From a virus, in IMG/VR virus record IMGVR_UViG_3300018890_000001, positions 628 through 64,627 of that record: a stretch of DNA of 64,000 nucleotides, one strand, 5' to 3'. A program made the position numbers and the translations under genes. How positions within the stretch are numbered: position 1 is the first letter of the stretch; each line of letters opens with the position of its first letter. Below the pieces are notes generated by a model that searched no databases, was not told the origin of the DNA, and saw nothing but the letters and a program-made list of their open reading frames with translations. Shown piece after piece: positions 18,323 to 55,454 of this stretch.

Positions 18323-18400
18323 ATCAGTCATCAGTCATCAGTCATCAGTCATCAGTCATCAGTCATCAGTCATCAGTCATCAGTCATCAGTCATCAGTCA
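18323..18400. repeat. Heptamer tandem array (ATCAGTC)x11, STRR-like
   Basis: 11 perfect copies starting at the stop codon of the rep-like gene; resembles cyanobacterial STRR heptamers. Confidence 0.95.
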
Positions 18401-19981
18401 CCAACCAATGTCGCCAAAGACTTGCTCCCCTTGAGAAGGGATTGATTCTTGGGCGATCGCCCGCTCAACCTTTGCTTTAGTTCGCTCAATTTTTTCCCCG
18501 CGACACATAGCTGAGAGCATGGCAAGATTGGCGCGACATTCTTCTTCCGACATTTCCAATGCGGGCGTCGTACGAGATTCTGTCACGACCAGAGCGGGAG
18601 ATCGCCCTTGGGCTTCTTCACTGGCTTCTTCGCTGGTGATCACCAATAGTTCTGACTGACAAGACTGAATTTGCGGTGTTTGATACTGGTGTAACTCTTG
18701 CAAAGCAGAAATGGCGTCCGCTGAAGTTGCTTTGCGCTTAGGTGTTAACCAAGGATCGAGCGCTGGATATTGCACTCCAACTTTTGCCAATCTCTGACAC
18801 TCATCGCGTAAGAACACTACGCGGTCTTTAATTGCTTGCCAAAGTATTTCCATCTGTCTGGGGCTTTCCAATAGTCGCCCAACTTGTATCGCAGCTTCTG
18901 CCGGCGTAGTACCCGGTTTTGACAAGTACCGCTCTTTAAGACACTGGAGCACTGCTTCACAAGGTACTCCCGGTTCTGCTTCCCACTCCCGACGATCGCC
19001 CGTCCCAATCGGCACCCCAGCTTTGAACTCTTCCCAGTAAGGGCTAGGCACGCCGTCGCGTGTCATGTTGCGGGCGATCGTGTACGCCCAACCTGACGGG
19101 TTTTTTTTGCCTGATTTTTCACCGTAAGCCTTGAGCTGTTCTTGGAAATCCTTGAGCTCGTTTTCATCAAAAGCAGACCCTACCTTAGTATAAGCGACCT
19201 CTGCTTTTATATAAGCGACCTCTGCTTTTATATAAGCGACCTCTGCTTTTATATAAGCGGACTCTACTTCTGGACTAGCGAACTCGACCGTCGCGGAAAA
19301 TTGATCCAATTTTTCAATCTCGGGGTTTACCCAAAAATCTTCTTCTTGATTAATAGGTGTGCAAATAACCTCATGTTGCACTGGTTCCTGTAATTCGAGT
19401 TCAGTCTTTAAACCGAACCCTTCCTTTTGATTTTCTTCTTGAGAATTTATTTCTTTGTCAAAACCGCCTTCTCTCTCAAGATTTTGAAGAGGTAGATCTG
19501 AAAAGGTATCTTGATATGATTTGTCGCCAGTTGCAAAATCGATATGAGCGTTTCCGTCAGATCGATTTGTCTGTTTTGAACAAATCGATAGCGGCGCACC
19601 TTCCAGCAGCTCAGTCAGCTTGTCATGGTTGACGCTGTAATACTTACACTGATCCCAAGAATGTGCTCGAAGCTTGCGAGTCACTACCAGCCCAATTGCC
19701 TCAAGTCGTGAAAATATGCGTCGCAGTCTCCCAGGCGTAGCCCAGATAAAGTTGCTGAGCCAGTCTATTTGCTTACCGTGAGACTTACTCAACTTTCTGG
19801 GATTGGTGCAGGCGATCGGGTTACGGATCATCTTTAATCCATCGTGGGCGATCGTCCCGCCCATCTGCGGATTCTCGACGCACCACTGAAGCTTGTTGAA
19901 GATTACTGCTTCTTCTAGACCGATGACGGCGGCTAGCTCTGGGGAAAAATATCCTAATTCGTGGGTCATGACATCCTCCAT
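18398..19981 (-). CDS. Replication initiator / replisome organizer-like protein (N-terminal winged HTH); likely start 19969
   Basis: LAAVIGLEEAVIFNKLQW...LRRIFSRLEAIGLV...DQCKYYSVNHDKL resembles phage O/DnaD-like N-termini. GGAGG lies 5 nt before ATG 19969. Confidence 0.65.
   Translation of the reverse strand: MEDVMTHELGYFSPELAAVIGLEEAVIFNKLQWCVENPQMGGTIAHDGLKMIRNPIACTNPRKLSKSHGKQIDWLSNFIWATPGRLRRIFSRLEAIGLVVTRKLRAHSWDQCKYYSVNHDKLTELLEGAPLSICSKQTNRSDGNAHIDFATGDKSYQDTFSDLPLQNLEREGGFDKEINSQEENQKEGFGLKTELELQEPVQHEVICTPINQEEDFWVNPEIEKLDQFSATVEFASPEVESAYIKAEVAYIKAEVAYIKAEVAYTKVGSAFDENELKDFQEQLKAYGEKSGKKNPSGWAYTIARNMTRDGVPSPYWEEFKAGVPIGTGDRREWEAEPGVPCEAVLQCLKERYLSKPGTTPAEAAIQVGRLLESPRQMEILWQAIKDRVVFLRDECQRLAKVGVQYPALDPWLTPKRKATSADAISALQELHQYQTPQIQSCQSELLVITSEEASEEAQGRSPALVVTESRTTPALEMSEEECRANLAMLSAMCRGEKIERTKAKVERAIAQESIPSQGEQVFGDIGW
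19189..19259. repeat. 21-bp direct repeats x3 plus a partial copy (TATAAGCGACCTCTGCTTTTA), iteron-like
   Basis: Exact copies at 19189, 19210 and 19231, partial at 19252; encode (AYIKAEV)n. Confidence 0.9.
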
Positions 19982-20060
19982 GAGTTTCTCTGAAACTCGC
20001 TGATGCCTGCCGGATGGAAACTAATTAAGCGTGTAATACGAACAACTATTTTTTAGTGAG

Positions 20061-20089
20061 TTGACGCTTTTACAATTATTCGCTATAAT
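20061..20089 (+). promoter_or_regulatory. Near-consensus sigma70 promoter for a predicted antisense RNA
   Basis: TTGACG-N17-TATAAT with no + strand ORF downstream. Confidence 0.75.
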
Positions 20090-20095
20090 GAAGCG

Positions 20096-20164
20096 AATAT
20101 GGTAAATCAATTTTCGTTGAGTTTCTTTGTTTCGCTATTCCGGCAGGCTTAGCGATTTTTTTTT
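20096..20164 (+). ncRNA. Predicted ~70-nt RNA antisense to the rep leader
   Basis: Consensus promoter upstream; terminal hairpin TCGCTA-N12-TAGCGA followed by T9. Confidence 0.6.
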
Positions 20165-20210
20165 GTCTGCGTGATCTGATACTTGGCAGAGTATACAGAC
20201 TGACGATCCT

Positions 20211-20238
20211 ATTGTACGCGATTTTGGCTCAGGCGCAA
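20211..20238 (-). promoter_or_regulatory. Putative rep promoter
   Basis: Minus strand TTGCGC-N16-TACAAT, embedded in the repeated GGCTCAGGCGCAAG motif. Confidence 0.5.
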
Positions 20239-20276
20239 GGGCTTTCTGAGGAGTTCTATACCACGGTTTCAATAAA

Positions 20277-20311
20277 AAGGGCGCACATCTAATATATAGA
20301 TGTGCGCCCTT
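20277..20311. terminator. Terminator hairpin
   Basis: AAGGGCGCACATCTA / TAGATGTGCGCCCTT. Confidence 0.75.
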
Positions 20312-20316
20312 CGTCG

Positions 20317-20976
20317 TTAGTCAGGGAATACCGACAGTTCGCCAGCGGCGACTAATCGCAGTGCATCCATAACTTCTTCATTTGGCGAAAAGAAGAATTT
20401 TGCCAATGTTGGACACATTCGAGACGCTTTCGGGCCTGGAAAGATCAAATCTGGGCATATCCAGCTAGTAAGGCTACGCGAGAAGCGGTAAGAACTTTTG
20501 TCCCAACTCGCTTGATCTAGCGAACCTTCACCTCGATCAAATATGTCAAGTAGCTTTTTCGCCAAGGAGACTTCACTGCTTTTGTCGGCAAGACCGATCA
20601 CCCCTGCTAGGATAGCGCCAGTCAAATCAGCCCCACTTAAATCTACAAGATGCAAATTAGCATTGGTCAAATTAGCACTTCGCAAATTAGCAGCTAGTAA
20701 ATTACAACTGCATAAATTTGCATTTGTCAGATTTACCTCTACAAGGCGTGTGTATTGTAAATTAGCGTCCATCAAGCTACTGTTTTCCAAATTTGCTCTA
20801 AACAGGATCGTGTAGAGTAGGTTTGCTTCTTTTAAGTTGGCTCCCGACAAATTCGCGTGACGTAACGTGGAGTGGGTTAAGTTTGCTTTGCACAAATTAG
20901 CGTTACTTAAATCTGCACGATCTAGCTGTTTTTCAGAAAGATTTGCCGCTTCTAACTCTTTGGTTGTGATTATCAT
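20317..20976 (-). CDS. Pentapeptide repeat protein with C-terminal extra domain
   Basis: About 120 aa of A(N/D)LxxA repeats followed by about 90 aa of non-repeat sequence. Confidence 0.9.
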   Translation of the reverse strand: MIITTKELEAANLSEKQLDRADLSNANLCKANLTHSTLRHANLSGANLKEANLLYTILFRANLENSSLMDANLQYTRLVEVNLTNANLCSCNLLAANLRSANLTNANLHLVDLSGADLTGAILAGVIGLADKSSEVSLAKKLLDIFDRGEGSLDQASWDKSSYRFSRSLTSWICPDLIFPGPKASRMCPTLAKFFFSPNEEVMDALRLVAAGELSVFPD

Positions 20977-21064
20977 TTAATTTTGTTGAATGACTACATC
21001 AATATATTACAATTTATTACGTACTAAGTAAAGTGATTTCTGTGATTAAGGTATGATCGATTTT

Positions 21065-21179
21065 GGTTCAGGCGCAAGGGATTTCCAGGTGGTCTTGCAC
21101 CTGAGTTATATAAAAGAGCGGGGGATCGATAAATTATCGATCGCCCCCTTTTTATTCGTAATCTTGGCTCAAGCGCAAG
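21065..21179. repeat. Inverted repeat unit (14-bp arms, 15-bp spacer), terminator and extra half-site
   Basis: GGTTCAGGCGCAAG-N15-CTTGCACCTGAGTT, hairpin at about 21112-21153, then GGCTCAAGCGCAAG at 21166. Confidence 0.8.
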
Positions 21180-21195
21180 TGATATATCTTTGCGA

Positions 21196-21573
21196 TTAAC
21201 TGAATTTAGCTTTTGCGGCTTGTACCGAGTCTTTAGCTTGTAAAAGTTCGATTAGACACCTTTTGAATTCGCCGCGCTGGACTTGAAATTCAATTTTTTC
21301 TGCAATATTTAACTCTTCGGTAACATTTCGTAAATCTCTAGTGAGTTGACCGCTAGTATTTTTGTTACTCCGAATTCGTAACCAAATGCTTGTTTCTTCC
21401 TCAGCCGCTAACAGGGGAGGATGCAGATTAGCTAGCCTTTGCGTATCGATAACTGTGAGATTCTCACCGATTTTGTTGCACTCCTGTTGTACTGTACCAG
21501 GTAAGCTTTCGACTTGCTGGTATAGCGCCATAATAAAAGCTTGAAAGATTTCGTCTTGTGTATCTTGCATCAT
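21196..21573 (-). CDS. Cyanobacterial-type hypothetical protein
   Basis: 125 aa; FQAFIMALYQQ..SLP..VQ.....IG motif. Confidence 0.65.
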   Translation of the reverse strand: MMQDTQDEIFQAFIMALYQQVESLPGTVQQECNKIGENLTVIDTQRLANLHPPLLAAEEETSIWLRIRSNKNTSGQLTRDLRNVTEELNIAEKIEFQVQRGEFKRCLIELLQAKDSVQAAKAKFS

Positions 21574-21617: not shown

Positions 21618-21721
21618 ATTGTACAAGGTTTTGGCTCAGGTGCAAGGTATTTTCAGATGGTCTTGTACCTGAGCCACAAAAAGAGCGGGCGATCGATAAT
21701 TTCGATCGCCCGCTCTTTTTT
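21618..21721. repeat. Inverted repeat/promoter unit plus CGATCG-core terminator
   Basis: GGCTCAGGTGCAAG-N15-CTTGTACCTGAGCC (21633-21675); minus-strand TTGCAC-N16-TACAAT; hairpin GAGCGGGCGATCGA/TCGATCGCCCGCTC. Confidence 0.8.
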
Positions 21722-54091: not shown

Positions 54092-55454
54092 TTGATGTGA
54101 GCGTGAAGCCCTACGAGCCACCGAAGATGCGCGTCGGGACAAAAGCGCAGCCAAAAAATAAATTGAGCTGTAGCAAATAAATAATCGTTTTTGTGCGTTA
54201 TGATGATTTTATCAGTATTCCGCACACCTGATAAATGTATAAAGCTTACAAGTACAGAATTTACCCCACAAGTGATCAAGAGGTTTTGCTCGCAAAATCT
54301 TTTGGGTGCGCACGATGGTTCTGGAACTACGCTTTAAACCTGTGTCAAGAAACCTACAAGCATACTGGTAAGGGATTGTCTAGGGGCTACATACAAGGCT
54401 TACTTCCTACACTCAAAAAAGAGTACGAATGGCTAAAAGAGCCATATGCTCAATGTTTGCAGGCGGTTGCGCTCAATCTATCTACAGCCTACAAAAACTT
54501 TTTTGAGAAGCGGGCGATGCCCCCAAAGTTTAAAAACAAGTACAGTAGACAGTCGATCAGCTATCCGCAAAACATAAAGTTCGATGGGGACTATATCAAC
54601 TTACCTAAGATTGGTCTAGTTTTCTGTCGAAGACACCGTGATTTCGTAGGTGACATTAAAACTGTTACCGTTTCTCGAAACCCAGACGGTAAACACTTTG
54701 TTTCTGTTTTGATTGACGACGGGAAAGAACACCCTGAGCTAGTCGCAGTAGATAAGACTATTGGCATTGACGTGGGGTTGACTCATTTTGCAGTCACCAG
54801 TGATGGTTCTAAATTTGACAATCCCAAGCATTTCGTCAAGCGTCAACGGAACTTAAAGCGCAAACAACAGAAGCTTTCTCGCAAAAAGAAAGGCAGTCAA
54901 AACCGGAAAAAGGCAAAACGGGCTGTAGCCAAAGTCCACTCCAAAATTGCCAGATGTCGCGAAGATTTTCTACATAAGCTATCCCGCAAGATAGTCAACG
55001 AAAACCAAGTTATTGCAGTAGAAAATCTCAATATCAAGGGCATGGTCAAAAATCATAATCTAGCCAAAGCTATTAGTGACGTTGGTTGGGGGATGTTTTG
55101 CACGATGCTTAAGTACAAGTCGAAGAACGAAGGAAGAAGACAATACGTCGAAATCGATAGATGGTTCCCTAGCTCTAAGACTTGCCATGTATGCCTAAAT
55201 CAAATCAAGCAGCTTACGCTTGACGTTAGAGCATGGACTTGCAAACATTGTGAAACACACCATGACCGTGATATCAACGCAGCAATCAATATTAGAAATG
55301 AAGCCTTGCGGATTTTGGCATTAGGAATTAGTGCTTCTGCCTGTGGAGGGGATGTAAGTCGATCCGGTAAAACTTCGGTTTTGTTGGACGCTATCCCCAT
55401 TGAATCAGGAAGCCAGACGATGACCGATTAATTGGCCGTCGTCTGGTAATTCAC
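54092..55454 (+). mobile_element. IS200/IS605-family element carrying tnpB only
   Basis: Right end GAAG-hairpin(CCAGACGA/TCGTCTGG)-TAATTCAC at 55454. Left-end-like GAAGCC...GCGTCGGGA near 54105; left boundary approximate. Confidence 0.8.
54235..55431 (+). CDS. tnpB: RNA-guided endonuclease TnpB
   Basis: YKYRIYPT N-terminus, RuvC IGIDVG / VENL / HDRDINAA with all catalytic acids present, Zn ribbon CHVC...CKHC. Confidence 0.95.
   Translation: MYKAYKYRIYPTSDQEVLLAKSFGCARWFWNYALNLCQETYKHTGKGLSRGYIQGLLPTLKKEYEWLKEPYAQCLQAVALNLSTAYKNFFEKRAMPPKFKNKYSRQSISYPQNIKFDGDYINLPKIGLVFCRRHRDFVGDIKTVTVSRNPDGKHFVSVLIDDGKEHPELVAVDKTIGIDVGLTHFAVTSDGSKFDNPKHFVKRQRNLKRKQQKLSRKKKGSQNRKKAKRAVAKVHSKIARCREDFLHKLSRKIVNENQVIAVENLNIKGMVKNHNLAKAISDVGWGMFCTMLKYKSKNEGRRQYVEIDRWFPSSKTCHVCLNQIKQLTLDVRAWTCKHCETHHDRDINAAINIRNEALRILALGISASACGGDVSRSGKTSVLLDAIPIESGSQTMTD

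Follow-up and report, generated by a model that had tools for sequence, protein, structure and literature searches.

We analysed a 64,000-nucleotide stretch of viral DNA (the whole stretch is called the window hereafter), taken from positions 628 to 64,627 of the IMG/VR record IMGVR_UViG_3300018890_000001. In it a rep-like gene, P0001, is preceded by a long leader that holds a candidate translational switch driven by a short antisense RNA (Table 1). An earlier account of this DNA, made from the letters alone (the sequence-only reading), had proposed at this place an antisense-RNA and alternative-pairing switch on a replication initiator; all the elements it listed are present in the DNA and most of them are conserved in relatives. 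The record is 199,763 bp long, lacks end repeats, and has a CheckV completeness estimate of 100%. The DNA of the stretch is contained in biocrust metagenomes (DNA runs), and relatives of the rep-like gene occur in Microcoleus assemblies; Microcoleus sp. herbarium7 and B3-D7 carry relatives. Proteins of the window match phage tail fibre, endolysin, and terminase-like ATPase proteins, and the window also encodes a class II ribonucleotide reductase, a methyltransferase, and a TnpB. The labels of myophage and phage-plasmid once attached to the element were not confirmed, as there is no Pfam match to tail sheath, ParA (AAA_31), ParB_N, or tyrosine integrase in the 199.7-kb record.

The start of P0001, judged from the aligned DNA, is the one given in Table 1; the in-frame upstream ATG at 19981, which is ACG in relatives, is set aside, and GGAGGATGYCATG is kept in relatives. 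The protein has no Pfam family, neither RepA_N (PF06970) nor an IncFII_repA-type Rep being matched, and a sequence-profile search against solved structures gave no match. Its PHROG matches are a DnaD-like helicase loader (3e-6) and a replication initiation protein (1.4e-4). The AlphaFold (AF2) model, made from a 46-sequence alignment, has a mean predicted local distance difference test score (pLDDT) of 63, is good at residues 10-123 and 234-436, and shows a winged helix at the N-terminus. The best AlphaFold-DB clusters for this N-terminal domain, at weak resemblance, are DnaD/phage-associated, Replication protein, and lambda O N-terminal domain, and the weak matches of the fold in the PDB include the RepA_N-DNA complex 5kbj/4pql (E 0.14-0.5). 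The PHROG and fold matches make P0001 a likely replication initiator, as had been assumed, but these matches are weak and come without a Pfam family.

Within the gene, 3.4 copies of a perfect 21-bp repeat encode AYIKAEV repeats, which lie in a disordered linker that varies among homologues; they may serve as iterons, like those of lambda O, or result from a recent duplication within the coding sequence. The record of the window has a single copy of the rep-like gene. Two IMG/VR records of about 189 kb each have two rep-like paralogues (L021/L023 and L022/L024), one of which, in each record, follows a leader of the second type described below; a provirus classification applies to one of the two. 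In Microcoleus genomes the Rep family is rare. For the Microcoleus genome that carries L020, Rep was found in 1 of the 79 genomes of its genus and 1 of the 401 of its order, which yielded no further leaders.

Table 1. Features of the rep-like locus, followed by other features of the window; positions are counted from the first letter of the window.
Feature	Position	Strand	Details
rep-like gene P0001	18398..19969	minus	523 aa; ATG start 19969-19967
Shine-Dalgarno (SD) sequence and spacer	19970..19979	minus	SD GGAGG 19975-19979 (plus CCTCC); spacer GAUGUC 19970-19975, proposed anti-RBS partner
Hairpin proximal to the ribosome-binding site (RBS)	19982..19998	minus	GAGUUUC-AGA-GAAACUC; 2 nt before SD
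Distal (3') strand of long-range helix	19997..20021	minus	holds GGCAUC (plus GATGCC, 20002-20007) and 10-mer 20005-20014
Antisense promoter	20061..20089	plus	TTGACG-17-TATAAT; -35 20061-20066, -10 20084-20089; predicted transcription start site (TSS) ~20096
Palindrome	20079..20097		TTCGCT-N7-AGCGAA; straddles antisense -10
Predicted antisense RNA	20096..20164	plus	~69 nt; hairpin 20132-20155, then U9 20156-20164
Target stem-loop, 5' strand (pre-emptor) of long-range helix	20129..20155	minus	19 nt pair with distal strand at p>0.8
5'-terminal hairpin of sense leader	20165..20200	minus	outside antisense target; in minimum free energy (MFE) fold of all leaders, sequences differ
Sense (rep) promoter	20211..20238	minus	TTGCGC-16-TACAAT; -35 20233-20238, -10 20211-20216; predicted TSS ~20204
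Operator-like word	20226-20242, 21062-21081, ~21166-21185, 21630-21649	minus	GGCTCAGGYGCAAG, 15 bp, CTTGYRCCTGAGCC in full copies; carries -35 of minus-strand promoters
Heptamer array ATCAGTC	18323-18400		11 perfect copies
21-bp repeats in rep	19189-19259		3.4 perfect copies
Pentapeptide-repeat protein gene	20317-20976	minus	219 aa (Pfam 1.3e-37)
TnpB gene	54235-55431		OrfB_IS605 with Cas12f-like TNB domain

Related leaders share one layout

A search of 5.8 billion proteins with Rep returned 45 homologues, and the leaders of relatives, on metagenomic and Microcoleus contigs, were taken from the contigs of the closest homologues and from a scan of three collections. The set that we call type A, to which the comparisons below refer, comprises ten leaders, namely those of the window and of L025, L006, L016, L012, L026, L007, L008, L009, and L015. 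Their alignment (A2) has a mean column identity of 63%, and the Rep proteins of the nine relatives are 41-76% identical to P0001. Every one of the ten has the antisense promoter, a terminator hairpin followed by U7-9, the RBS-proximal hairpin, and a long-range helix of 21-30 bp. A second group, type B (L013, L014/L027, L021, L022, L028, L017/L018), cannot be aligned with the first; its 5' end is a GC-rich hairpin, which on the opposite strand forms a terminator, and its antisense strand has an extended -10 promoter enclosed by a long-range helix. The distant Rep homologues L072 and L073 (~40% identity) have no long leader and lie directly behind another gene. In L026 (1245-1503) a full type-A leader precedes a protein of which about the first quarter differs, without GGAGG and with the GAUGCC spacer kept, which points to a recombination event where leader and gene meet.

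An Rfam scan of positions 19000-21500 with E up to 5 gave only noise and no ctRNA or CopA match, the leader had no blastn match in plasmid and phage collections, and tblastn of Rep against the same collections gave only weak partial protein matches. The record itself has no second copy of the leader region, the short promoter/operator word excepted. A conserved 17-nt motif was also sought in viral contigs; its 42 loci are all attributable to chance, none with the hairpin or A-run context, and were rejected.

A predicted, covarying long-range helix spans the antisense target

The 256-nt sense leader of the window folds at an MFE of -67 kcal/mol (z = -5.4, none of 200 shuffles being as good), and in this fold UCGCU..GCCUGCCGGA..GAAAC is paired with GUUUC..UCCGGCAGGC..AGCGA. 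The core of this pairing had been described in the sequence-only reading as a 10-nt loop complementary to a segment near the start. The 10-mers at 20005-20014 and 20139-20148 are indeed exact complements, which alone is weak evidence, one-mismatch matches being expected about twice per window. But the pairing is not confined to the loop: the 5' arm, loop, and 3' flank of the target hairpin (20129-20155) all pair with 19997-20021, giving a duplex of 21 bp in the window; the ten leaders range over 21-30 bp and from -33 to -52 kcal/mol. In all relatives the A-run marks the start of a region whose partner lies within the 45 nt before the RBS hairpin, at an arm spacing of 125-190 nt. The ensembles agree, with 18-27 nt of the target region bound to the distal strand at p>0.8 in all ten leaders and the local hairpin displaced.

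Several comparisons support this helix. First, the helix that holds the 10-mers covaries, as the earlier proposal would expect of relatives: seven pairs are changed on both sides, and none of 500 shuffles reaches the covariation score. Second, the 18 core column pairs are paired in 85% of cells, against 25-48% when the partner columns are slid. Third, in a 10 x 10 matrix of strands each leader's own partner is the best or equal-best (one tie in ten leaders), by up to 14 kcal/mol. The local target hairpin is itself 86% paired, and in two of its pairs both partners have changed. Should the switch be genuine, this leader would represent a new structured-RNA family, with clear comparative support from the aligned leaders.

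In several relatives (L007, L008, L009, and L012) the target stem-loop contains GAUGCC. This is identical to the spacer in front of the rep AUG, so that the pre-emptor mimics the spacer of the ribosome site. The AUG within this GAUGCC opens non-conserved open reading frames (ORFs) of 21-53 codons, without an SD.

Such repeats could also act as DNA. The 25-bp imperfect inverted repeat, with a promoter between its arms, and the TCGCT/AGCGA words might be protein-binding sites, for Rep autoregulation or as part of an origin, or else the remnant of a small mobile insertion, with no regulatory RNA pairing at all. The words occur five times in 160 bp, including the palindrome over the -10, rep genes often lie beside origins, this one has perfect 21-bp repeats inside it, and wobble pairs in the helix show no strand bias. 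Yet the arms differ among relatives with very similar Rep N-terminal domains while remaining complementary within each leader, their spacing varies over 125-190 bp, the 199.7-kb record has no further copy, and conservation extends to the whole unit of promoter, terminator, and T-run, which together make a purely DNA-level function, as a protein site or a cruciform, very unlikely. A miniature inverted-repeat transposable element (MITE) or other mobile insertion was rejected, as the record lacks any other copy.

Opposed promoters and a predicted antisense RNA

A translational switch of this kind requires two transcripts, and we infer that both are produced. On the plus strand, the near-consensus promoter noted earlier matches the sigma-70 consensus at 11 of 12 positions, the top match within 2.5 kb; in the ten leaders these promoters read TTGAC(G/A), 17-18 bp, TA(T/C/G)AAT, and match at 10-12 of 12 positions. 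The ~70-nt counter-transcript foreseen from this promoter would end in a terminator whose hairpin, in the window, joins TCGCTA (20132-20137) to TAGCGA (20150-20155) across a 12-nt loop, with T9 behind it. All ten leaders are predicted to give a counterpart of this RNA, 59-102 nt long and ending in a hairpin and U7-9, and the 71-nt antisense RNA of the window folds at -14.4 kcal/mol (z = -2.0). Promoter and terminator are conserved while the leader otherwise varies freely, which argues that both are genuine.

The palindrome that overlaps the antisense -10 has arms that co-vary (TCGTT/AACGA in L009, GTTCG/CGAAC in L006), and it could serve as an operator for that promoter or fold as a hairpin in the sense RNA.

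On the minus strand, a strong terminator at 20277-20311 ends the upstream gene, so that rep needs the promoter at 20211-20238. This promoter, from which a leader of about 235 nt had been predicted, is conserved in relatives, with a weak -35 (3/6), on account of which the promoter scan missed it, and a 16-bp spacer. It sits within the word CTTGCGCCTGAGCCAAAA, of which there are three more same-strand copies within 1.4 kb and no other in the 199.7-kb record, where the matches elsewhere are degenerate and on the plus strand. Two of the operator-like copies are full inverted repeats and three adjoin bidirectional terminators. The word is probably a shared repressor site of rep and the small genes upstream, and it would add a protein-level transcriptional control of rep. 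Control of this type is exerted in plasmids by CopR and CopG.

The arrangement of the promoters raises the possibility that the antisense promoter acts on transcription or RNA decay, by convergent-promoter interference, RNase III cleavage of the duplex, or attenuation, and that the helix does no more than give the mRNA structure. The strong antisense promoter faces the weak rep promoter from 108 bp away, and the operator-like motif on the latter suggests a second, transcriptional layer; effects of convergent transcription are documented for pIP501 (PMC5703833). This explanation is nevertheless distinctly unlikely. The sense TSS lies 40 bp beyond the antisense terminator, the covariation between distal strand and target is left unexplained, and the sense leader has no conserved hairpin with a U-run downstream of the target. 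Indeed, no sense leader has a U-run after the RBS-proximal or the extended stem, which makes intrinsic attenuation unlikely.

Blocking the target closes the ribosome site in folding models

A switch at the level of translation calls for a link between the target and the ribosome site. The RBS-proximal hairpin is kept in the ten leaders (88% of cells paired, no covariation). The sequence-only reading had noted that one of its arms is repeated upstream; the hairpin is conserved but the repeat (20118-20129 in the window) is common only to the window and its two closest relatives, L025 and L006, and the repeated arm 20118-20126 was rejected as a general partner of the hairpin. A second pairing is possible between GGCAUC in the distal strand and GAUGYC, which separates GGAGG from the AUG; it would enclose the RBS-proximal hairpin. 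This anti-RBS stem (alignment columns 270-275 x 308-313) is possible in 95% of cells.

We modelled antisense binding by forbidding the target to pair and read out the energy needed to open positions -16 to +13. With the target blocked, every one of the ten leaders needed more modelled energy to open its RBS, the mean going from 8.6 to 15.8 kcal/mol. The mean stayed at 8.6 kcal/mol when as long a stretch of the central domain was blocked instead, and was 8.3 kcal/mol with the 5' hairpin blocked. The antisense-bound MFE shows the GGCAUC/GAUGYC stem in most leaders, and among type-B leaders the opening energy shifts in the same way in the five of seven that were computed. Conservation, covariation, and folding controls in the ten leaders thus support the central element of the sequence-only reading, a short countertranscript that competes with a long-range pairing of the leader.

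How that competition would affect translation is a separate matter. In the model of the IncI-alpha and IncB plasmids, the long-range pairing would be a positive pseudoknot that promotes ribosome loading and that the antisense RNA blocks, anti-RBS sequestration not being the main effect. In favour of this, the exact complement of the target loop lies close to the RBS, a single site is contested by the antisense RNA and the distal segment, and a competition of this sort is used by IncI1/IncB according to the account in PMC8053102 (citing Asano and Mizobuchi 1998). What is missing is a leader ORF coupled to rep: none of at least 10 codons is conserved across the ten leaders, and those of the window, L025, L006, and L026 have no ATG ORF whatsoever, so that coupling through a leader peptide is unlikely and was rejected. 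Moreover, the pairing runs over 21-30 bp through the stem, the loop, and the flank, so that the hairpin is lost, every model with the helix formed has an open RBS already, and neither a Pfam IncFII_repA-type Rep nor an Rfam ctRNA or CopA match was found. The analogy drawn earlier with these plasmids therefore holds for the competition for one RNA site, but not for the leader peptide and probably not for the loop-only pseudoknot, the modelled effect being an unmasking of the RBS. We regard a positive pseudoknot as unlikely here.

A proposed pre-emptor switch

The reading that we prefer, with a probability of roughly 0.6, is a countertranscript-driven translational switch of the pre-emptor type on the rep-like gene. 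The rep mRNA would start near 20204, from the weak promoter that carries the operator-like motif, while the near-consensus promoter on the other strand within the leader would give the antisense RNA of about 69 nt (20096-20164) ending at its hairpin and U9. The target of this RNA in the rep mRNA would be the stem-loop 20155-20129, which is made first and would be open to the antisense RNA. When no antisense RNA is bound, the target would pair with 20021-19997, made about 125 nt later and abutting the RBS-proximal hairpin; the long-range duplex would sequester GGCAUC, SD and AUG would be left open, and Rep would be made. When the antisense RNA binds first, the distal strand would stay free, GGCAUC would pair with the GAUGUC spacer, and a stem closing around the RBS-proximal hairpin would make translation fall. 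Regulation would then depend on a kinetic race, in which the distal strand, once transcribed, captures the target and keeps the ribosome site open unless the antisense RNA has won and the site is closed. The distal strand would in effect be an internal partial copy of the antisense RNA, both competing for one target.

A number of observations weigh against this switch. The sample is of only ten leaders, several of them close relatives, which limits statistical power. A test of wobble asymmetry is neutral (11 G.U against 12 A.C), and with no strand bias of wobble pairs an action of the inverted repeat at the RNA level is unproven. In the anti-RBS stem all changes are wobble changes, none of them affecting both partners of a pair. 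The window itself shows a small shift, from 9.5 to 12.8 kcal/mol (+3.3), and its extra upstream AUG forms a local hairpin that already lowers the accessibility of the RBS (P unpaired 0.26). The stem of its terminator is short (6+2 bp), and both transcripts, like both TSS, are predictions.

Comparison with known systems

The closest known mechanism, by analogy, would be that of RNAI of pSK41, one of the staphylococcal RepA_N plasmids. RNAI (~83 nt) is complementary to the rep leader about 100 nt upstream of the translation start, and its binding has been proposed to induce a stem that hides the RBS, transcription not being attenuated (PMC5703833). The system described here would share with it a short leader countertranscript with predicted promoter and terminator, of ~69 nt and with a target ending 127 nt before the AUG, an antisense-induced stem that sequesters the RBS, here seen in silico, and a Rep with an N-terminal winged helix, whose fold weakly resembles 5kbj and 4pql. 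Unlike pSK41, it shows no sequence or Pfam relationship (RepA_N is unmatched), and it belongs to a cyanobacterial host and a 200-kb phage-like replicon, with a much longer pre-emptor duplex.

The pre-emptor logic itself is that of the repC leader of pT181, where, in the account of Novick et al. 1989 given in PMC5703833, a pre-emptor within the antisense target normally occupies the 5' arm of an inhibitory stem farther downstream, and RNAI frees this arm. As that account presents it, the inhibitory stem of pT181 is an intrinsic terminator and the control is by attenuation, whereas here no U-run follows the stem and the same logic would apply to translation, where the modelled effect lies. In IncI-alpha (Inc RNA/repZ of ColIb-P9) and IncB (RNAI/repA of pMU720), as outlined in PMC8053102, a translated leader peptide (repY or repB) and a short loop pseudoknot are needed. 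These plasmids resemble the present case, on that outline, in that one stem-loop is contested by an antisense RNA of ~70 nt and by a distal segment close to the rep RBS, and that the distal pairing favours Rep; they differ from it in that no leader ORF is conserved here and that the duplex is of 21-30 bp and includes the stem.

The sole cyanobacterial precedent that we found in the literature, pSYSA of Synechocystis 6803, works differently. Its replication module, with asRNA1/ssr7036 and CyRepA1, includes an abundant cis-antisense RNA (PMC9978351). The control is ColE1-like, the antisense RNA overlapping a small coding/primer transcript processed by RNase E, and the Rep is a primase-helicase (PMC9978351). 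Both are cyanobacterial replicons with an antisense RNA, here a predicted one, at the replication module, but pSYSA has no homology to the present Rep or leader. The circuit that the sequence-only reading called possibly undescribed would thus be new as a sequence family, the leader, antisense RNA, and Rep matching no described family as far as sequence comparison can tell, but its plasmid-style control is of a well-known kind.

Neighbouring features

The gene directly upstream of rep encodes the pentapeptide-repeat protein, and genes of similar size occupy its position in L008 and L009. On the other side, the array of ATCAGTC heptamers runs into the rep stop codon. These heptamers resemble the heptameric short tandemly repeated repetitive (STRR) sequences of filamentous cyanobacteria, and the array may have a role in an origin. 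Farther away in the window, the TnpB gene is intact, inside a phage-like element.

Implications

Antisense control of rep translation is textbook knowledge for plasmids of Firmicutes and enterobacteria. In the literature that we found, no large phage-like element of filamentous cyanobacteria has been reported to use it. If the switch exists, its compact and orthogonal antisense/target pairs would be of use for the control of copy number or translation in cyanobacterial engineering.

A broader reading joins these elements. The distal strand would be an antisense mimic that shields the finished mRNA, so that repression may be possible only in the few seconds before this strand is transcribed. 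The target/mimic pairs have diverged into at least five mutually non-matching specificity groups (window/L025/L006; L016/L026/L012; L007/L008; L009; L015), besides the unalignable second leader type with the same layout. The groups and the second type together could be exchangeable determinants of incompatibility or superinfection, acting among related Microcoleus elements of ~190-200 kb, and large cyanobacterial phages would persist as copy-controlled episomes. We hold this broader reading to be tentative and, on balance, rather doubtful.

Microcoleus is a keystone organism of biocrusts. If the pre-emptor switch is true, its elements of 190-200 kb would regulate the dose of their own initiator, with consequences for copy number or the timing of replication, and this would point to an episomal or carefully timed replication.

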